A stretch of DNA of 64,000 nt from Methanobacteriota archaeon. GTDB lineage: Archaea > Thermoplasmatota > E2 > DHVEG-1. Below, piece by piece: positions 3-11,898 of the stretch (position 1 is the first letter of the stretch; each line of letters opens with the position of its first letter). The stretch is taken from assembly GCA_963769885.1 (NCBI GenBank), contig CAVYNH010000007.1:500163-564162 (forward strand). The letters run 5' to 3'. Both the position numbers and the translations under genes were made by a program. Below the pieces are notes generated by a model. The model did not search any database, had not been told where the DNA came from, and saw only the letters and a list, made by a program, of their open reading frames with translations.

Positions 3-995
3 TTGACCTTCCCGGTGAAATATCCCGACAACGCCTCGGTCCAAGAAGATGGACGCAGTGGACCCTTATACCATTCCTTTCCGATGGGCACGATCGGAGC
101 CGCCGTTCCAGGCCAGACCTGCGACTTCACCATCACCGCCCGATGCCCATCCGGCAGCGGGAATCTCCGCTTGAACGTCAGCTGCAGCGACTGGGGGACG
201 CGAACTCAGTACAGCACCCTCTCGGGCAGCTGCAGAGAAGTACTCACCCATCGGTTCGGCCCCACGAACGAGACAATCACCGGCCAGTACATGGTCCCAG
301 CAGACCAGAACGCCTGGTTCCTGCAGGGAGAATTACAGTTCTTGAATACGACCGACTACGAGGTCTCACTGTTCAGCATCCAACGGACACATGACAGTAA
401 CATGACCGAGGATTTCCACCTGAGTCTGGGAGGACGCTGGTATAATTCCTCGGGTCCTCTCGCTTGCGGAGAGCAGGTGAATTTCTCCATCGACCCAGAG
501 GAGCTTGCCGATGCGCAAGGAGTCATGACCTTTACAAGCCGTATCAATGGAAACCGGAACGGCATGGCGGTTCTCGTCTTTGAGGAGCCGATTTTGATGG
601 GGTTGAACGCACGGTTCCGGGTCACCACAACCGACGGGGGATATGAGCTGACGTTGACGAAGACGTTGACTCGGACGTCACCGCTTCTGATGCGCATCTG
701 GGAATCCCCGGTGTTCCAGAAGATGCCTCGGGCTACCGAACTGCTGGTCCGGGTGATGCTGGCCGCCGGCATGGATACCCTGCTCAAAACCTTGTTCATA
801 CGAAATGATTCTGATCTCTGTTCCACCTTCGAACTGCTTCCTTTCAGCACCGATCCGTTGTACTCCGGCGTGAACGTGACCGCGATGGACGGCTCGGGGA
901 TACGACATCAGAGCCTCAATGGGAACCTCTGGTGGTCCTGTAATGGGCCGGATCTCGGGGAAACCATCGTCAGGGTCCGTTTCCCAAGACAGTAG
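3..995 (+). CDS. Hypothetical protein, C-terminal part (runs off the window start), beta-rich and probably extracellular
   Basis: Open frame of 330 aa from the window edge, followed by an inverted repeat; no family recognised. Confidence 0.6.
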   Translation: MTFPVKYPDNASVQEDGRSGPLYHSFPMGTIGAAVPGQTCDFTITARCPSGSGNLRLNVSCSDWGTRTQYSTLSGSCREVLTHRFGPTNETITGQYMVPADQNAWFLQGELQFLNTTDYEVSLFSIQRTHDSNMTEDFHLSLGGRWYNSSGPLACGEQVNFSIDPEELADAQGVMTFTSRINGNRNGMAVLVFEEPILMGLNARFRVTTTDGGYELTLTKTLTRTSPLLMRIWESPVFQKMPRATELLVRVMLAAGMDTLLKTLFIRNDSDLCSTFELLPFSTDPLYSGVNVTAMDGSGIRHQSLNGNLWWSCNGPDLGETIVRVRFPRQ

Positions 996-1001
996 AAAAA
1001 A

Positions 1002-1068
1002 GAAGGAAAGCAGCCTCCGGCATGGAGCAGGAGGCCGCCCATTTGTCGGCGAGGAGTCTGCTTCCTTC
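1002..1068 (+). terminator. Imperfect inverted repeat after the first ORF (terminator or structured 3' UTR)
   Basis: GAAGGAAAGCAGCCTCC...GGAGTCTGCTTCCTTC can pair. Confidence 0.35.
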
Positions 1069-1170
1069 AGTCTGGTTTTGGAGGTCGATGGTGGGTGCTT
1101 GGTCTAAAGTCATGTCGTAGATGGTTTTAGGGCCAGTGTAGGGCGTGAATTCAATACTGACGTTTCATCG

Positions 1171-1725
1171 ATGCAGGATAAAATATTAATGACCTGCTTG
1201 GTTATCCTGTGCCGAAGAAATTGTGTACAGGTGGTTGGATTGGATGATTTGACGACAATCTCGACGATTGTTGCAACAGTAAGTATTGTGATCGGCGTCC
1301 TCTTTACCTTGCTTGAACTTCGACACTTCCGGAAGACGAGAAGAACGGAAATCATCATGAAGATCTATGATCGGTTTAGCAGTCGGGAGATGGTGGAGGC
1401 TATCAACAAAGTCGGCAGCTCGAAATTCGAGAATCTTGAGGAGTACGGGAAGACACAAGGGTTTACTGATGTGGCGGAGATCGCTGTCCTTTTTGAAGGT
1501 CTTGGGGTTCTTCTCGAGCAGAACCTCATCGACATCGATCTTGTCGATAGTCTCTTCGGACCGACCCTTGATATCCTATGGCTGAGGATGAAACCAATCA
1601 TTTACGGCATGAGAAAAGGACTCAACGAACCATTCTTCTTTTCCCATTATGAAAAACTCGTGGAACAGTTACGTGCGCATAGACAAAGAGTTGGAAGACA
1701 TGATACTACGAAAGATGGATCTTGA
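1171..1725 (+). CDS. DUF4760-like protein with N-terminal TM helix (true start probably about 1231-1240)
   Basis: TM segment then FEGLGVLLEQNLIDIDLV...W...KPII...R....F..YEKL, resembling DUF4760. Confidence 0.65.
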   Translation: MQDKILMTCLVILCRRNCVQVVGLDDLTTISTIVATVSIVIGVLFTLLELRHFRKTRRTEIIMKIYDRFSSREMVEAINKVGSSKFENLEEYGKTQGFTDVAEIAVLFEGLGVLLEQNLIDIDLVDSLFGPTLDILWLRMKPIIYGMRKGLNEPFFFSHYEKLVEQLRAHRQRVGRHDTTKDGS

Positions 1726-1798
1726 CGCCTTTCTAGTCAGAATGTCACTCTGTCTTCGTAAATAGTTCCATTGGATATTCTGCTGCGGAGAGGCATGA

Positions 1799-2263
1799 AT
1801 GCGTAACAAGCGATTTATCGTAGTACATCGGGGAGGATCTCTGAAAAAGGAACATCATTATCAGCTGATGCAATGGGCATGCGACTGCGCAGAGCATGTC
1901 CTGCCGCTCGTTGGTGAAACAATCAATGAGCGGCTCACAGCTGCCCTCAAGGTGGCGAAAGCGTGGAAACAAGGAAACGCGTCCGTTGGTGACACACGAA
2001 AAGCAGCAGTAGCCGCGCATGCGGTCGCGCGCGAAGCTTCAAACCCGACGGCCGTTGCGGTGGCCCGTGCAGTCGGGCACGCGGCGGCGACCGCGCATAT
2101 GGCTGACCACTCATTAGGATCCGCGTGGTATGCCTTAAAAGCCGTGAAATCCGCAGGGAAATCAGTAGAGGTTGAGAGGAAATGGCAGGATGAACAATTG
2201 TCATCAGGAATCAAGGACCTTGCGATTTCTGCAAGGAGCAATAAGAAATTCAGTAAGATATGA
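1799..2263 (+). CDS. Imm5-like putative immunity protein
   Basis: WACDCAEHVL...AW..G......RKAA.AAHA.AR...AVARAVGHAAATAHMADH...A.YALKA...ERKWQ. Confidence 0.8.
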   Translation: MRNKRFIVVHRGGSLKKEHHYQLMQWACDCAEHVLPLVGETINERLTAALKVAKAWKQGNASVGDTRKAAVAAHAVAREASNPTAVAVARAVGHAAATAHMADHSLGSAWYALKAVKSAGKSVEVERKWQDEQLSSGIKDLAISARSNKKFSKI

Positions 2264-2312
2264 ATCTCATGAGATGAAAGGAAACGGTTAACGGGGTTGA
2301 CTGGGAAAGGTC

Positions 2313-2337
2313 CTGGGTGTCGGCCGTAAGCCTCTTT
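2313..2337 (-). repeat. 25-bp perfect copy of the RNase P RNA 3' end (att-like site)
   Basis: CTGGGTGTCGGCCGTAAGCCTCTTT is identical at 2313-2337 and 3136-3160. Confidence 0.95.
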
Positions 2338-2461
2338 ATCACTTATAAATAATAACAAATTCTAGAAAATTTGAAGATGTAATGTCCTAGAAAATTCTTA
2401 TTATTTTTTGATAAATTTAATAAAGAAATAGTTATTACGATCTTACTGTTAGGGCGGTGTA

Positions 2462-3094
2462 ATGACTGCACAGAATCCTGATTTTAAACAACCACCTTGG
2501 GTGCAAAGCCCCTCTGAAGTCATGAGTTGGATTGACGCAACACATCCTTCGAAGAAAACAAAGGGTAAAAAACACGTAGCATCCGGTGAAGAGATTCTTC
2601 GAAATCTCCATGTTTGTTTCGATTTAGACATCGAACAAAAAAAGATACCACCGCGGAATAGTATTTCAAAATTTATAACGATGATTACTAGGAATGGATT
2701 TGTTGAAGAAGGGTTTGAACTCATTCCAACAGCTGAACTTGTTTTACGAGGCCTTGCGAAGGCGAAGTATAAAAATATTGTAAAAATAGTTTGTAATGAA
2801 AAAACCATATATCGTCATTCAGGCAACAATCCCGATCTGAGAAAAACTATCGATGATTTCAGCGAGTTTACCAATGACGTCCAAACAGGAAAATCAGTCG
2901 AGGTGACCACTATTTCAAAAGAAGGTATGAAAAGTCTCGCTATCGTAAAAATTATGAAGATTCACAAGGAAAAGGATCATGCAGTCGATATTCAGATAAA
3001 GGGAGGGATTAAGAAGGAATTGTATCACACGTTTCTTAATTATCTTACTGAAAAGCTTGGTTTAAAAGATGACCAAGAGAAATTTCTTAGATAG
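2462..3094 (+). CDS. Hypothetical Lys-rich protein, sole cargo of the rnpB-anchored island
   Basis: 210-aa AT-rich ORF with upstream TATA-like TTTAATAAA and SD-like GGCGGTG. Confidence 0.75.
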   Translation: MTAQNPDFKQPPWVQSPSEVMSWIDATHPSKKTKGKKHVASGEEILRNLHVCFDLDIEQKKIPPRNSISKFITMITRNGFVEEGFELIPTAELVLRGLAKAKYKNIVKIVCNEKTIYRHSGNNPDLRKTIDDFSEFTNDVQTGKSVEVTTISKEGMKSLAIVKIMKIHKEKDHAVDIQIKGGIKKELYHTFLNYLTEKLGLKDDQEKFLR

Positions 3095-3131
3095 GGCCAT
3101 TTAAAATAAATAACGAATAAAGATGTTCGTT

Positions 3132-3450
3132 GGTGCTGGGTGTCGGCCGTAAGCCTCTTTTTGTTCTGACGGCATTCGTCTGATGCGCCCTACCCGCGAG
3201 CAATCTGGACAATTGATCCCGCTGTTTGGGCTTGCTCCAAGGGCGGATAAGCCGTTTCACCAACTCCCACGACGACCTCATCACCACACGTGAATCATCG
3301 CATAGATCGCAGGCTGTGCCGTTTCTGTGCCTCCGCAGAGGCTCTCGCCTCTACCGCTTGCACGGTGCCCCGGTCCAGACCGAGAGAGGACTTTCCTCAG
3401 CAAAAACCCCAAGGGTCTTCACCGTCAACCGTCCACCGACGCCCAGCACC
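3132..3450 (-). ncRNA. rnpB: RNase P RNA (archaeal)
   Basis: Minus strand has GAGGAAAGUCC, ACAGAAACGGC, UGAAACGGC, GGAGCAAG and AACAAAAAGAGGCUUA in canonical order; 5' GGUGCUGGGCGUCGGU pairs with 3' GCCGACACCCAGCACC (P1). Confidence 0.95.
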
Positions 3451-3572
3451 ACTCACCCAACAAACCACCCCCACATAAATACTTATCCACACCAAACCAA
3501 AACCACCCCCCTTCAGAGAGAAAAAAAACCAGACACATAAATAAACTCATTCACCGTTCCCCCCCTGCTAGC

Positions 3573-4736
3573 ATGATCCTTGACCTAACCATCGTCCAAC
3601 AACTCGCCATCCTCCTCCTCACCGCCCTCATCGCCTACCTCATCTTCACCAAAATCAACCAATCCATCATCATCGGCGAAATCCTCCTCGGCATCCTCAT
3701 CGGACCCAGCATCCTCGGCGTCGTCACCTACACCCCCTTCGTCCAAGACATCGCCATGCTCGGCGCCATCCTCCTCCTCTTCGTCATCGGCTTCGAATTC
3801 AAAATCAAAGACGTCTACAACCTCCGCTTCGCCGTCATCGCCACCTTCGGCGTCATCATCCCCTGGATTGCTGGATACTTCTTCGCCCAATACATTGGTT
3901 ATAATTTCATCACCTCATTTTTCATCGGTACGACACTCACGGCCACCAGTATCGCAATCACCGCCAATGTCCTCAGAGAATTAGGGAAGCTCCACACCGA
4001 ACCCGCCCGAGCCATCATCGGCGCCGCGGTCATCGATGACGTGCTCGGGCTTATCGTCCTCTCCTTTGCGACCCAACTCCAACATGGAGCACTCCAGTCC
4101 CTGGATATCCTCAAAATCATCGCCCTAGTCGCCGCGTTCTTCATCATCGGCATCCTGATCGGCCGTCCAGCCGTCCGCTGGCTCATGGAACATTTCGAAC
4201 AAACCACTATAGCCAGGAAGCACGTGGAGACGATCCTAATCCTTGCCTTCGTCATCGCCTTTCTGTTCTCGGCCGCCGCGGAAAGCATCGGCCTCTCAGC
4301 CATCGTCGGCGCATTCCTCGCCGGCATCACCATGGAAGGCGTCAAGGCACGGGAGAACGCCGACTTCCGCAAAGGCGCAGATCACGTTCAGATGATCTTC
4401 GCCCCCGTCTTCTTCATCTCTCTCGGCGTGCTTATCGACTTCCACCAACTCACCACGGACATCATCTGGTTCATCCTCGCGCTCACCGCGATCGCGATCC
4501 TCACCAAGCTCGTCGGCTGCTACCTCGGCGCGCGCATCGGCCACATGAGCCATAAGGACTCCTTGATCGTGGGAATCGGGATGGCACCGCGGGGCGAGGT
4601 CGCCATGATCGTCGCCGTCATCGGCCTCGAAGCCAGCGTCATCACCCAAGAAATCTACACTGCCGTCATTATGATGAGCCTCTTGACGACGCTGTTCGTC
4701 CCCGCAATCCTTCGATACATGAAGTTCCCTGAATAA
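3573..4736 (+). CDS. Cation:proton antiporter (CPA2/Kef-type)
   Basis: GEILLGILIGP, LTATSIAIT, GAAVIDDVLG, GMAPRGEV and many TM helices; the longer 3327 start overlaps rnpB and is rejected. Confidence 0.93.
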   Translation: MILDLTIVQQLAILLLTALIAYLIFTKINQSIIIGEILLGILIGPSILGVVTYTPFVQDIAMLGAILLLFVIGFEFKIKDVYNLRFAVIATFGVIIPWIAGYFFAQYIGYNFITSFFIGTTLTATSIAITANVLRELGKLHTEPARAIIGAAVIDDVLGLIVLSFATQLQHGALQSLDILKIIALVAAFFIIGILIGRPAVRWLMEHFEQTTIARKHVETILILAFVIAFLFSAAAESIGLSAIVGAFLAGITMEGVKARENADFRKGADHVQMIFAPVFFISLGVLIDFHQLTTDIIWFILALTAIAILTKLVGCYLGARIGHMSHKDSLIVGIGMAPRGEVAMIVAVIGLEASVITQEIYTAVIMMSLLTTLFVPAILRYMKFPE

Positions 4737-8587: not shown

Positions 8588-8715
8588 GCAGGGGTAGCCA
8601 AGCCTGGCCAACGGCGCAGGACTTAAGATCACAAGGGCTGAAACACAGCGGAAGGTTCGTTGGATGAGACATCCTGTCTCGCAGGAGTCCGAGGGTTCAA
8701 ATCCCTTCCCCTGCA
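8588..8715 (+). tRNA. tRNA-Leu(TAA) with a 43-nt intron (8628-8670) at canonical position 37/38
   Basis: Acceptor GCAGGGG/CCCCTGC-A; CAGGA-CTTAAG[intron]A-TCCTG; BHB central helix CUUA/UGAG with bulges AGA and ACA; long variable arm. Confidence 0.95.
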
Positions 8716-8781
8716 CTCTTTCTTCCACAAGATAATTATTAATACATGAAACAAGATTTATTGTTAGAGGGAGGAAGTAAA

Positions 8782-9651
8782 GTGCAGGAAAAACACAAAA
8801 TCTTTGCAATACTTGCTACAACACTACTTCTCACAGTATCGTGTTTGCCAACAATCTCTATGGCAACCCAAAACCACTCATCGGTCCAAGTGACCACTGA
8901 GGTATACGGTTTACAAAATGATAAACCGAAGACCGTCTCACTCACCGACGAACAATACCAGCAGTTCGAAGAGTACTGCACCAGCTTCCATACAAGACTC
9001 ACACAGGCAACAACCCAAAAGGAAGTCACGCTCCTCTTCAAAGAAGCGGTCGGCGTCCTCCATAGCTACGACCTCCTCCCCGCAGGTATGACCCTCCCTC
9101 AGGCACAACGCATGGTTGAACGCCTTGCGCAAATCTCACAACGACTAAACACTCGAGCAAACACCTACTACTCACAGACCGGCAACCACATCTGCCTCAT
9201 TGCGGGGCACACCACGCAAACATGGTTTACCTCACCCCTTTATGCCTCCCTGTTAGTCCTCTTGTGGCTCATCCAAAAACACGACACTCTCGTCTTCCTC
9301 CTCTTTACCGCTATGATGATGGATGACCTCGTCGATCAATTCATTCCCCTAGCTCCTTTCGATGCTATTAGTTTCGGTGAAGCATGGATGGATGGTTGGG
9401 AAGGACAATGGCACGACGCCTATTCCGAAGGCTGGGTCCATACCTTCGGATTTGGCGGCGCTCACGACTGGAACGGAACATTCAAAGGAGCGCTCACAAT
9501 CGACATCCCCGGAGGCAGCCACCTCTACTCTGATCTCTACCCAGGAGCCACCGGTTTTATCGGTATTAAAACCGAATCCCTGTACCGATCCTCCTTTTAC
9601 CTCGGTCTTGCTCTCAACGTCCAACTTAACAATGTCAATACTACACGCTGA
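8782..9651 (+). CDS. Secreted hypothetical protein (cassette 1 cargo)
   Basis: Signal peptide; SD GGAGG before GTG at 8782; ends GFIGIK...FYLGLA..V. Confidence 0.8.
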   Translation: MQEKHKIFAILATTLLLTVSCLPTISMATQNHSSVQVTTEVYGLQNDKPKTVSLTDEQYQQFEEYCTSFHTRLTQATTQKEVTLLFKEAVGVLHSYDLLPAGMTLPQAQRMVERLAQISQRLNTRANTYYSQTGNHICLIAGHTTQTWFTSPLYASLLVLLWLIQKHDTLVFLLFTAMMMDDLVDQFIPLAPFDAISFGEAWMDGWEGQWHDAYSEGWVHTFGFGGAHDWNGTFKGALTIDIPGGSHLYSDLYPGATGFIGIKTESLYRSSFYLGLALNVQLNNVNTTR

Positions 9652-9700
9652 AATCACAAAAAAAAACATGGCCTGTATTATTAACCTTACTTAGTTGATT

Positions 9701-9756
9701 GTCAATATTTGACGTACCGGTAAACTGGGGTTCAAATCCCTTCCCCTGCACTCTTT
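9701..9756 (+). repeat. att-like unit 1: 27-bp arm plus 29-bp perfect copy of the tRNA-Leu 3' end and trailer
   Basis: GGGTTCAAATCCCTTCCCCTGCACTCTTT at 9728-9756 equals 8693-8721. Confidence 0.95.
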
Positions 9757-9819
9757 TTTACCTGAAAAAGGTTTAAATAACCAAGGGTAATCTATTTGCA
9801 TATAGAGGGCGGGAAAGCA

Positions 9820-10965
9820 ATGATTGGAAATCCTATTGTTAGGAAACATTTGGCGGTTGGAATCATTCTCTTGTTTGTTGGGGCTTGTGTCGTTCCAGTG
9901 ATTGCACAAGATCCTGAAAAACCACTACCGACATCAAGAGGCGATTGGGTATATGTTGGTGGGAGTGGACCTGGGAACTACTCAAAGATTCAGGATGCGA
10001 TCAATAATTCTTCAAGTGGAGGCACCATTTACGTCTTTCATGGTACCTATCATGAGGCAATCACGATCACTGTTTGGAATCTGACGATAATCGGAGAAGG
10101 TAGAGACGTTACAATCATTGATGAGAACTGGACCGATGCCGCGGTGGTGATCGAAAAAAGTTGCGTGAGCCTCCGTGGGTTCACCATCACAGGGAAGAAG
10201 GACGGTATTTATGTTCATGGGGAATTAACCACCATAACGGTTTCTGACAATAATTTTACACAAAATTACTGTGGCGTTGAGTTTCAATACGATTGGGATA
10301 ACTATGATAATGTCATAGAGAACAATATTTTTTATTCAAATCACTGTGGGATTTATTTCGTAAGCGATCTCTGGTTCAATACCATTAGAAACAACTCATT
10401 CATCAATAATTTTGATGGTATGGAAATCAGTGGAAACAATATCAGAGTACTGAATAACACATTTCTGAATTGTCAGGGGAGTGGCATTTCCCTTTATGGC
10501 GGACCATCGATGGTTGAAGGTAATATTTTTACTAAAAATAACATGGGAGTATCTGGTGGTGGTCTGGAACAAACAATTTCTGGAAATCTATTTATTGAAA
10601 ATGATATCGGTCTGAATCTTGGTGGCTCAGGACATACTATCACTGGAAATGTCTTTGAGAATAATTCACTTGGCGTGAGAGTATCTGGTTCCAATACAAA
10701 GGTGAATCAAAACAATTTCATACAGAACGGCAAACACGCACAGTTTGCTGAAGAAAACCGATCGAATGGGAATAACTGGGACAACAATTATTGGAGCGAT
10801 TCATTCCACTTTTTTGGTTACAAGTGCATTTTTGGGAAGATGCACACAAAAATACCAAGGCTTTTACAATTTGATCCATTCAGTACTACCTATTTTTGGA
10901 TTGGATGGATCAACTTCGACAGGCATCCCGCACAAGAACCCTATAGTATTCCAGAAATGAATTGA
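9820..10965 (+). CDS. Secreted NosD-like right-handed parallel beta-helix protein (cassette 2 cargo)
   Basis: Signal peptide, YVGGSGPGNYSKIQDAI, GTYHE, Asn-ladder repeats, NNWDNNYWSD, NFDRHPAQEPY. Confidence 0.9.
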   Translation: MIGNPIVRKHLAVGIILLFVGACVVPVIAQDPEKPLPTSRGDWVYVGGSGPGNYSKIQDAINNSSSGGTIYVFHGTYHEAITITVWNLTIIGEGRDVTIIDENWTDAAVVIEKSCVSLRGFTITGKKDGIYVHGELTTITVSDNNFTQNYCGVEFQYDWDNYDNVIENNIFYSNHCGIYFVSDLWFNTIRNNSFINNFDGMEISGNNIRVLNNTFLNCQGSGISLYGGPSMVEGNIFTKNNMGVSGGGLEQTISGNLFIENDIGLNLGGSGHTITGNVFENNSLGVRVSGSNTKVNQNNFIQNGKHAQFAEENRSNGNNWDNNYWSDSFHFFGYKCIFGKMHTKIPRLLQFDPFSTTYFWIGWINFDRHPAQEPYSIPEMN

Positions 10966-10978
10966 TTGATACTCATCC

Positions 10979-11023
10979 GTCAATCATCGTCGTGCCGTTA
11001 AACCAGGGTTCAAATCCCTTCCC
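10979..11023 (+). repeat. att-like unit 2: 27-bp arm plus tRNA-Leu 3'-end match
   Basis: AGGGTTCAAATCCCTTCCC (11005-11023) equals 8692-8710; arm is 19/27 identical to unit 1 at the same spacing. Confidence 0.9.
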
Positions 11024-11075
11024 TCTCATTTTTTTCCTGCGATGCATCCTGAGAACAGAAAACTTTAAATATGAA

Positions 11076-11137
11076 ATGTTATATATACATAACATATTGT
11101 TATAGATAAATAATAAAATGTTATCACCAACACACAT
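11076..11137 (+). promoter_or_regulatory. Three tandem operator-like palindromes (TGTTAT-N6-ATAACA consensus) downstream of TATA TTTAAATA
   Basis: TGTTAT at 11077, 11098 and 11119; first copy is the perfect palindrome ATGTTAT-ATATAC-ATAACAT; an XRE HTH gene lies downstream. Confidence 0.7.
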
Positions 11138-11155
11138 TGAAAAGAGGTGAAATGC

Positions 11156-11560
11156 ATGAAAGAAAAATTAGAAATGATCACGGGGCTGATAATAGTAATT
11201 GTCGTGTTCCTGACACTTCTCATCTATGCCATGAACATCGGAATATTAGATATGGAAAAATTTGGATTATTTGTCATCGCCATTCTGCTAGTGTCGGCAG
11301 TCCTCTACATCCTCTGGGATCGAGCAAAAAACGTAAGAAAAGGACTGCCAGCGAAGGACGAACGGCTAATAAATATCACCTACAAGGCTGGACATAACGG
11401 ATTTATCGCAGCAACACTCAGCAGCGTTTTCGCCCCAGTGCTCTCAAGCATTCTCCTCAATCGAGAACTCGAGGGCCACCATGTGACCAGCATCGTGGTT
11501 CTTGTTTCAGGCTTTGTCTTCATTGTATCATATTTGCTTCTGGCGAGGAGAGGGAAGTAG
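11156..11560 (+). CDS. DUF2178-like membrane protein (cassette 3)
   Basis: Four TM helices, DER...I..KAG motif, SD GAGGTGA. Confidence 0.8.
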   Translation: MKEKLEMITGLIIVIVVFLTLLIYAMNIGILDMEKFGLFVIAILLVSAVLYILWDRAKNVRKGLPAKDERLINITYKAGHNGFIAATLSSVFAPVLSSILLNRELEGHHVTSIVVLVSGFVFIVSYLLLARRGK

Positions 11561-11563
11561 CCT

Positions 11564-11761
11564 ATGAAAACACGCATCAAGGAACTCCGGGCGCGATACG
11601 ATCTCACCCAAGAGGACCTTGCGAAGAAAGTAGGAGTCCGACGAGAAACAATCCTCTTCATAGAGAAGGGAAACTACAATCCCTCACTCCAACTAGCCCA
11701 CGATATCGCACAAGCCTTGCAGACAACCATCGATGACTTGTTTCTATTTGACGATAAATAA
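11564..11761 (+). CDS. XRE/Cro-family HTH transcriptional regulator
   Basis: [40 protein letters not shown]. Confidence 0.95.
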
Positions 11762-11774
11762 GAGAAGCGCCATC

Positions 11775-11819
11775 GTCACCTCTTGTCATGCTGAAAATCT
11801 GGGGGTCAAATCCTTTTCC
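11775..11819 (+). repeat. att-like unit 3 (degenerate arm plus degenerate tRNA-Leu 3' end)
   Basis: GGGGTCAAATCCTTTTCC has 3 mismatches to GGGTTCAAATCCCTTCCC; GTCA begins exactly 27 bp upstream as in units 1 and 2. Confidence 0.75.
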
Positions 11820-11898
11820 TTGAGCTTATCTATTTTTTCTTCGCTGAGAAGCACGGTACATTTTAATATCTTCAACCAATAACGACGGGGAGAAAAAG

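Follow-up and report, generated by a model that had tools for sequence, protein, structure and literature searches.

How a copy of the 3' end of the RNase P RNA gene (rnpB) came to lie on the far side of a single AT-rich gene, without an integrase beside it, is the question raised by this locus near the start of the window, by which is meant the whole 64,000-nucleotide stretch of DNA that was analysed. The original prediction, made from sequence alone, was that the gene sits in a small integrase-less insert in the rnpB tail, belonging to a cassette system with its own specificity. It proposed that rnpB be confirmed with Infernal, that the DNA downstream of rnpB in relatives be surveyed for repeats with variable cargo and for larger elements carrying an integrase, and that the empty site be sought. 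The comparisons described here support that main reading. The source genome, G000, is a metagenome-assembled genome (MAG) of 2.09 Mb in 7 contigs, 92% complete.

Infernal was run with the Rfam model of archaeal RNase P RNA (RNaseP_arch, RF00373) and confirmed rnpB at 3138-3444 on the minus strand, with a score of 175.3 bits against a gathering score of 84 (E 2.5e-50) and a match to model positions 1-288, the full length. A repeat search identified a direct repeat at 2309-2337 and 3132-3160, identical at 28 of 29 positions and spaced 823 bp apart. Within it lies a perfect 25-mer (2313-2337 and 3136-3160), for which the chance expectation inside 6 kb is about 1e-8. The repeat consists of the final 23 nt of the Rfam model, representing the 3' strands of P4 and P1, and 5 nt beyond the model that extend P1, as seen from an inverted repeat. 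The predicted duplication of 25 bp of the rnpB 3' end at a distance of 823 bp therefore held and could be extended to a core of 28 nt. At core position 12 both window cores have a C that is specific to this lineage; the P1 5' strand has a compensating change that pairs with it, and none of the 140 other cores described below has this C. The features of the locus are as follows.

3-995, plus strand: conserved chromosomal gene, the outer boundary of rnpB arrays.
1171-1725, plus strand: DUF4760-like membrane protein gene (Pfam PF15956, 1.6e-10).
1799-2263, plus strand: Imm5-like gene (Pfam PF21805, 1.3e-40), whose junction with the rnpB tail is common to genome G001.
2310-2337, no strand: distal 28-nt core, the displaced copy of the rnpB 3' end, with 1 mismatch to the proximal core.
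2338-2385, plus strand: class A cassette-side arm, containing the conserved motif TTGAAGATGTAAT at 2371-2383.
2405-2461, plus strand: putative promoter/leader region, conserved over five copies of the P210 cassette.
2462-3094, plus strand: cargo gene P210, encoding 210 aa, a conserved Thermoplasmatota family.
3095-3132, plus strand: cassette tail adjoining the proximal core, containing AAAGATGTT, which is similar to the arm motif; conserved with contig L044.
3133-3160, no strand: proximal 28-nt core, the functional rnpB 3' end and cassette/rnpB junction.
3138-3444, minus strand: rnpB (Rfam RF00373), intact, its 3' end regenerated by the cassette-side core copy.

Positions 3400-3900, which span the region upstream of rnpB and the start of a Na+/H+ exchanger gene, also show a very strong excess of C over G, with GC skew down to -0.64.

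Window positions 2310-3132 most probably represent an integrase-less cassette with one gene, inserted site-specifically in the rnpB tail. The only open reading frame between the cores is that of P210 (2462-3094, plus strand, 210 aa), and GC content is 0.33-0.38 inside the cassette compared with 0.55-0.60 in the flanks. No integrase gene was found within 2310-3132 or adjoining it, either in the ORF list or by Pfam. Two further parts of the original prediction, an AT-rich 210-aa gene bracketed by the repeats and the absence of an integrase, thus held. A TATA-like sequence, ATTTAATAAAG, occurs at 2415-2425 and GGCGGTG lies immediately 5' of the ATG; that 2405-2461 acts as the cassette promoter is inferred from sequence alone. 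The GAAGA of the arm motif (2371-2383) begins 35 nt after the core, and five aligned copies of the P210 cassette agree on this position. The two 10-bp repeats that had been put forward as possible arm-type sites are present (CTAGAAAATT at 2362-2371 and 2387-2396) but are not conserved; the motif conserved across the family is TTGAAGAYGTAAT (2371-2383), which lies between the two CTAGAAAATT copies.

The possibility that the arm motif is common to the tRNA-Leu cassette system in the same window was considered and rejected, as the window has 16 matches to the motif where 12.4 are expected, which is no enrichment, and the tRNA-Leu junction differs. The tRNA-Leu array itself is anchored by a second tRNA of 128 nt (8588-8715), which was recognised by Rfam and missed by ARAGORN and is likely to contain an intron.

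Empty sites with exact boundaries were found in two places. In G001, a genome of the same genus, the rnpB tail comes straight after the Imm5-like gene, giving an empty site with exact repeat boundaries, and the spacer motif TTGACTGGG at this junction is identical to that in the window. A 1993-nt contig from the wetland run X4 passes from 1811-2308 to 3132-3565 of the window, skipping exactly 823 bp. The P210 gene is not missing from G001; it can be found on the opposite side of the Imm5-like gene, without repeats. No circular or excised form of the window cassette was seen in the sequencing runs, which were examined only as assembled contigs and not as raw reads, and among which the best share of sampled words was 0.25, with none reaching half.

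The DNA on the far side of the cassette also appears to have been acquired. Homologues of the gene at 3-995 (49-70% identity) lie about 70 bp outside the outermost core in contigs L044, L086, L098, L081, L095 and L056, and in genome G018 a homologue lies about 340 bp from rnpB with no insert between them. Because this gene is conserved as the outer boundary and adjoins rnpB in G018, all of 996-3137 can be regarded as inserted material. Imm5-like homologues occur as cassette cargo in L044, L070, L086 and L098, and the Imm5-like gene of the window probably came in as cargo of an older cassette, the outer core of which has since decayed. The DUF4760-like gene sits between the conserved flank gene and rnpB without recognisable cores, and it is probable that both genes are older insertions that have lost their repeats. 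Pfam confirmed the predicted Imm5-like and DUF4760-like assignments, and synteny (the outer flank gene and G018) supports the suggestion that these genes may be older insertions. The weak partial core matches that had been reported near 1045 and 1751 did not stand: neither a profile built from 104 sites nor alignment of the region after the flank gene detected relic or degenerate cores upstream of the Imm5-like and DUF4760-like genes.

Related contigs were found to carry arrays of the same repeat with variable cargo, as the proposed survey had sought. Metagenome contig L044 contains five repeat copies separating four units, encoding DUF7557 with ParE, Fic with Imm5, a 427-aa protein and a P210 homologue, followed by rnpB; its window-like arrangement was assembled independently from another sample and is 86% identical to the window. 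In such arrays each distal repeat is followed by a conserved arm. The junction, defined as the 28-nt rnpB core and an arm with GAAGAYGTAAT 35 nt further on, occurs in about 56 other contigs. These were retrieved with a pattern consisting of the last 15 nt of the core (GCCGTAAGCCTCTTT), 31-35 unspecified nucleotides and TTGAAGA, which matched 51 metagenome stretches and 6 genome contigs, with cores present in 5 of the 6 genome contigs. Together with L044, the contigs found in this way contain 140 cores of 28 nt, all on the same strand and in arrays of up to 6 cores, and rnpB follows the last core in 10 contigs. The gammaproteobacterial contig L102 matched the pattern without having a core and was treated as a chance match.

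The arms fall into recognisable types. A GAAGACGTAA-type motif is found at the same offset in 55 of the 140 sites and GAAGACAGAA in 29, and the part of the motif beyond the searched TTGAAGA is also conserved at a fixed offset. Class A arms (87 sites) read CTCCTG followed further on by TTGAAGACGTAAT, and class B arms (17 sites) read CAGGAG followed further on by GAAGACAGAAG. The class A site profile matches the window at 2311-2387 (G000:C7:502473-502549) with an E value of 7e-15. We infer that GAAGACGTAAT and GAAGACAGAAG are arm-type binding sites for an integrase, for which there are no binding data. The core is immediately followed by the heptamer CTCCTGT in class A arms and by ACAGGAG in class B arms, and these two are reverse complements of each other. 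A third junction type can be seen at L069:1081, L080:9007, L070:647 and L097:6086 (oriented coordinates), in which the core is truncated after GTAAGCC and a conserved stretch with a small dyad (e.g. GTTCTTAGACGAGTTC) replaces the arm; one unit of this type encodes a 571-aa helicase that matches defence-system helicases in PADLOC.

Between adjacent cores 84 units could be delimited, with a median length of 935 bp and proteins in 70 clusters. Recurrent cargo is led by DUF7557 with ParE (17 units) and includes HEPN/MNT, AbiEi/AbiEii, HicA and HicB, MazE with DUF4258, Fic, Imm5-like proteins, a PDC-S01-type ATPase and P210, so that the cargo consists mostly of toxin-antitoxin and defence genes. 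Genes in the cassettes are found in both orientations. Identical unit types occur with different neighbours and at varied distances from rnpB. The whole P210 unit between its cores, with arm, TATA-like region and tail, is conserved in five contigs, at different array positions, and stands beside unrelated neighbours in L044, L065 and L094.

P210 had been described as an orphan, which proved incorrect, as 393 homologues were found and the gene is present in 21 of 41 relatives. Among the invariant residues are PPW (11-13), E83, R96, H168, H173 and N193-Y194, and the predicted structure (pLDDT 75) is a soluble alpha/beta sandwich. Sequence profile searches of Pfam, PHROGs, NCBIfam, PADLOC and PDB gave no family match, and Foldseek against PDB returned nothing below an E value of 0.15. 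In a wider structure search with VIA-align the best Z score was 7.8 (spermine synthase N-domain, AdoMetDC and RnlA NRD), which is in the range of common arrangements, and the ESM Atlas gave no usable match by features and only unnamed clusters by shape (TM up to 0.56). The sole hint of YajQ is a YajQ/UPF0234 label given by JGI to some P210 homologues; no match to this family was found in Pfam (E up to 1) or NCBIfam (E up to 0.01), and YajQ is absent among the fold matches. A role in defence or addiction is possible, and is no more than a low-confidence guess from the company the cassette keeps. The gene occurs without cores in G001 and L043, and for distant homologues in other genera (43-51% identity) no cores were found within 1.5 kb.

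Larger members of the family, of 3-7 kb, were found to carry an integrase, which the original prediction had proposed to look for. With the tyrosine recombinases of G000 as probes, a tyrosine integrase was located in two elements with cores at both ends, one of 7.3 kb in L079 and one of 4.2 kb in L059; these integrases are 74% identical to each other. Close homologues lie inside core-bounded elements in G020 (cores 3.1 kb apart) and G022 (3.6 kb apart), and G010, where a pseudogenised integrase was seen, contains a 6.5-kb integrase element together with an older 1.1-kb cassette. The elements of L079, L059 and G020 share the core and the class A arm with the window cassette. The integrase is 340-350 aa long, matches PF00589 (85 bits for the L079 protein) and PF13495, both above their cut-offs, and has a readable R...K...HxxR...H...Y pattern. 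Since the L079 protein scores 161 bits against the XerA model of NCBIfam (NF040815), below the equivalog cut-off of 220, it is best regarded as a XerA-related tyrosine recombinase and not as XerA itself.

In the integrase elements two direct GA(G/A)(G/A)ACGTAA(T) repeats abut the rnpB-proximal core and a third copy lies in the far-side arm, an arrangement that is lambda-like by analogy, without binding data. Homologues of the integrase (41-84% identity) are encoded by 14 of 108 family genomes, and in 11 of these 14 the gene is within a few hundred base pairs of the rnpB 3' end and convergent with rnpB. A second, distant type of integrase (24% identity) lies beside a core in L099. Also present within the 7.3-kb element of L079 is an IS200-type (Y1) transposase gene (L079:4747-5313), next to a Schlafen/AlbA_2 gene and a gene for a large FG-GAP/PKD surface protein. 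In G000, of which 92% is assembled, no close homologue of the integrase was found; the best match is 31% identical and lies elsewhere. The window cassette is therefore an integrase-less passenger without a cognate enzyme.

The cores are widespread in the family. An initial survey of 1.5 kb downstream of rnpB in 27 relatives returned only G000 and G036, as the flank examined was too short. When cores were counted genome-wide using a 26-nt core with up to 3 mismatches, 56 of 108 family genomes were found to contain at least 2 cores, with up to 12 in one genome, and a reversed-pattern control gave none. Many arrays lie elsewhere than at rnpB, which is not the only site used. Midway along a 40-kb contig of genome G017 (G017:C11:19675-35878; L151, L154) lies a free-standing array of at least 6 rnpB-type cores, whose arms are class-B-like, with no rnpB, tRNA or integrase nearby; the rnpB of G017 is on another contig, with no cassette within 15 kb. 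G000 itself has a second cassette on contig C1 (62330-63168; L048:10331-11169), an 811-bp unit of MazE with DUF4258. Its insertion point is the stop codon of the gene for topoisomerase VI subunit A, and the rnpB-like cores at its two ends have 3 and 5 mismatches. This unit is about 80% identical to cassettes from rnpB-type arrays in L094, L101 and L088, and the topoisomerase VI A site is uninterrupted in G001, G002, G017 and G018.

Two observations on rnpB in relatives are recorded separately. At least 6 MAGs have a contig that stops within a few bases of the rnpB 3' end (G023, G025, G026, G005, G028 and G011), as would be expected if repeats or strain variation at this point break assemblies. 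Genome G036, from a different family of the class, has two immediately adjacent direct copies of about 45 bp from the rnpB 3' end (L018:1790-1880), an arrangement that could be either a footprint or an assembly artefact.

Taken together, these data make it likely that the cassette family integrates by tyrosine-recombinase site-specific recombination into the last 28 or so nucleotides of rnpB. In the proposed mechanism each element would carry an attP-like site, in which arm-type motifs (GAAGAYGTAAT or GAAGACAGAAG) surround a 28-nt core equal to the rnpB 3' end. Recombination inside the core would join the element's core copy to the body of rnpB, leaving the ribozyme gene intact, and the old 3' end would be displaced to the far side of the insert, beside the conserved arm. 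Repeated insertion at the rnpB-proximal core would then build stacked arrays with older units further out, where old cores would decay, as they appear to have done around the Imm5-like and DUF4760-like genes. The enzyme would be the XerA-like integrase of the larger family members, encoded immediately downstream of rnpB and convergent with it. Sub-kilobase cassettes, which keep the sites without the enzyme, would be moved in trans, and the window cassette may at present be a stranded passenger, as G000 lacks a close integrase homologue.

The evidence for integrase-mediated insertion and tandem accretion is entirely comparative. It shows the anatomy of the site, the precise empty site, the recurrence of one conserved core-to-core unit among varying neighbours, relatives that carry both these sites and an integrase, and the tight linkage of the integrase to rnpB. 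Catalysis by this integrase, its action in trans and its binding to the arm motifs are inferred. The lineage-specific C at core position 12 bears on how the window cassette arrived, because insertion from a foreign attP should have left an A at one of the junctions. The presence of C in both cores might reflect re-insertion from within the lineage, a location of this position inside the strand-exchange overlap, or homologous recombination. Within-lineage re-insertion would fit the swapped order of P210 and Imm5 between G000 and G001.

Homologous recombination without an integrase is the main competing explanation. On this account DNA of a related strain, comprising Imm5, core, P210, core and rnpB, replaced the local stretch, with the Imm5 cassette and rnpB, or the cores themselves, as the homology arms. 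The absence of a cognate integrase from G000, the lineage-specific C in both window cores and the fact that the adjoining Imm5 and rnpB sequences are common to relatives at 76-97% identity would all agree with it. However, such exchange accounts for transfer between strains and not for the origin of a core-bounded unit; the occurrence of the P210 cassette beside unrelated neighbours (L044, L065 and L094) requires exchange at the cores, and cores of 28 nt are short substrates for homologous recombination. We consider this explanation unlikely.

Less likely still is that the locus is the remnant of a deletion in situ, in which a full integrase element lost all but one cargo gene and the 823-bp unit was never mobile. 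Integrase elements with the same cores and arm do exist, and a pseudogenised integrase is seen in G010, both of which are in favour of this view. Against it, the architecture of arm, promoter, gene and tail is repeated in five contigs at different array positions, and the 84 cassettes have a median of 935 bp and fall into recurring types; independent deletions would not produce shared ends. An assembly artefact or chance repeat can be all but ruled out. The source is a MAG (92% complete, 7 contigs) and in relatives the MAG contigs frequently stop at the 3' end of rnpB, which could suggest an artefact, but the same arrangement was assembled independently in L044 at 86% identity and in dozens of other contigs, and a repeated 25-mer is not expected by chance.

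Site-specific integration therefore remains the preferred reading, and a bolder version of it can be put forward as a single joint claim, to which we would give no better chance of being right than wrong. In this version a Thermoplasmatota family would run an integron-like system of gene capture and shuffling built from different parts, in which hundreds of cassettes of one or two genes, each with a 28-nt rnpB-derived core and an arm, would be individually excised and re-inserted in trans by rnpB-specific XerA-like integrases that are themselves cassette-borne, and the arrays behind rnpB and at secondary loci would form a population-wide pool of toxin-antitoxin and defence genes. With a candidate enzyme and candidate arm-binding motifs in hand, the capture and shuffling of integrase-less cassettes become directly testable, and an integrase with a conserved 28-nt target is a potential site-specific tool for archaea.

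Integration targeted to RNA genes is textbook knowledge for tRNA and tmRNA genes. No report of rnpB as an attachment site was found in the literature searched, and it is absent from a review of tyrosine recombinases in archaea (PMC8371274). The rnpB cassette family is widespread and apparently undescribed. As the catalytically essential P4 strand is part of the target, the ribozyme has to be rebuilt at each insertion. Island finders such as TIGER/Islander exclude islands under 2 kb and require an integrase (PMC12424338), and rnpB cassettes are systematically overlooked because most units are below this floor and lack the required integrase. Of the Islander-type criteria, a regenerated target gene with a displaced 3' direct repeat and a precise empty site in relatives are met, and possession of an integrase is not met by the window cassette but is met by the elements of L079, L059, G020, G022 and G010.

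A close parallel is provided by the ssrA-GIs of Dehalococcoides, tandem islands at the tmRNA gene, some of them without integration genes, which have been discussed as cis-mobilizable elements (PMC3146451). Both systems use a single-copy, essential, non-tRNA structural RNA gene as target, leave a short 3'-end direct repeat with each insertion and form multiple tandem islands downstream. The ssrA-GIs differ in using large serine recombinases (DsiB), in their size of several to tens of kilobases and in carrying reductive dehalogenase genes, whereas the rnpB system has a tyrosine recombinase, an rnpB target, an archaeal host and units mostly of 0.6-2 kb with 1-2 genes. Cis-mobilizable elements (CIMEs), which lie beside integrase-bearing relatives or derive from them, and tandem accretion at att sites are known, for example, from the ICESt1/ICESt3 family (the concept is cited in PMC3146451). 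The window cassette has the structural features of a CIME, having att sites at both ends without recombination or transfer genes and an integrase-bearing relative that shares those sites, and like CIMEs it is presumed to be mobilised in trans. Support for CIME-type excision and integration with an integrase in trans is only indirect, being inferred from the same cassette with different neighbours. CIMEs are described as occasional by-products beside ICEs, whereas integrase-less units are the majority in the rnpB system, where they form arrays of up to 6 or more and, unlike CIMEs, recur as defined types in over half of the species of the family. The tycheposons of Prochlorococcus (bioRxiv 10.1101/2020.12.28.424599) rely on a tyrosine recombinase and occupy tRNA and tmRNA genes; as here, each new integration moves the older elements further out, and partial tRNA copies and degraded remnants stay behind in the islands. 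Tycheposons differ in using tRNA and tmRNA genes instead of rnpB and in being multi-kilobase elements with replication modules, and the relevant passages of that report do not describe sub-kilobase cassette arrays. The tRNA-Leu cassette array of the same window (8588-11838) differs from the rnpB system in anchor gene, arm sequence and layout.

In behaviour the rnpB arrays resemble integrons and CALINs, with which they share small, swappable, toxin-antitoxin-rich cassettes with one recombination site each, free-standing arrays without a recombinase and preferential insertion at one end. The parts, however, are not those of an integron. When four strands of the sites were folded as DNA, their z-scores against shuffled sequences were -0.75, -1.55, 0.20 and 0.62, so that no attC-like hairpins were seen, and the integrase scores 65 bits on the integron-integrase model TIGR02249, for which the cut-off is 265. 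An IntI/attI/Pc platform is lacking; rnpB stands at the head of the arrays and the integrase lies inside a core-bounded unit. Also unlike integrons, genes occur in both orientations and the P210 cassette has its own TATA-like region. Based on the lack of hairpins, the use of both orientations and the absence of an IntI platform, the rnpB system is not an integron, though it is integron-like in behaviour.
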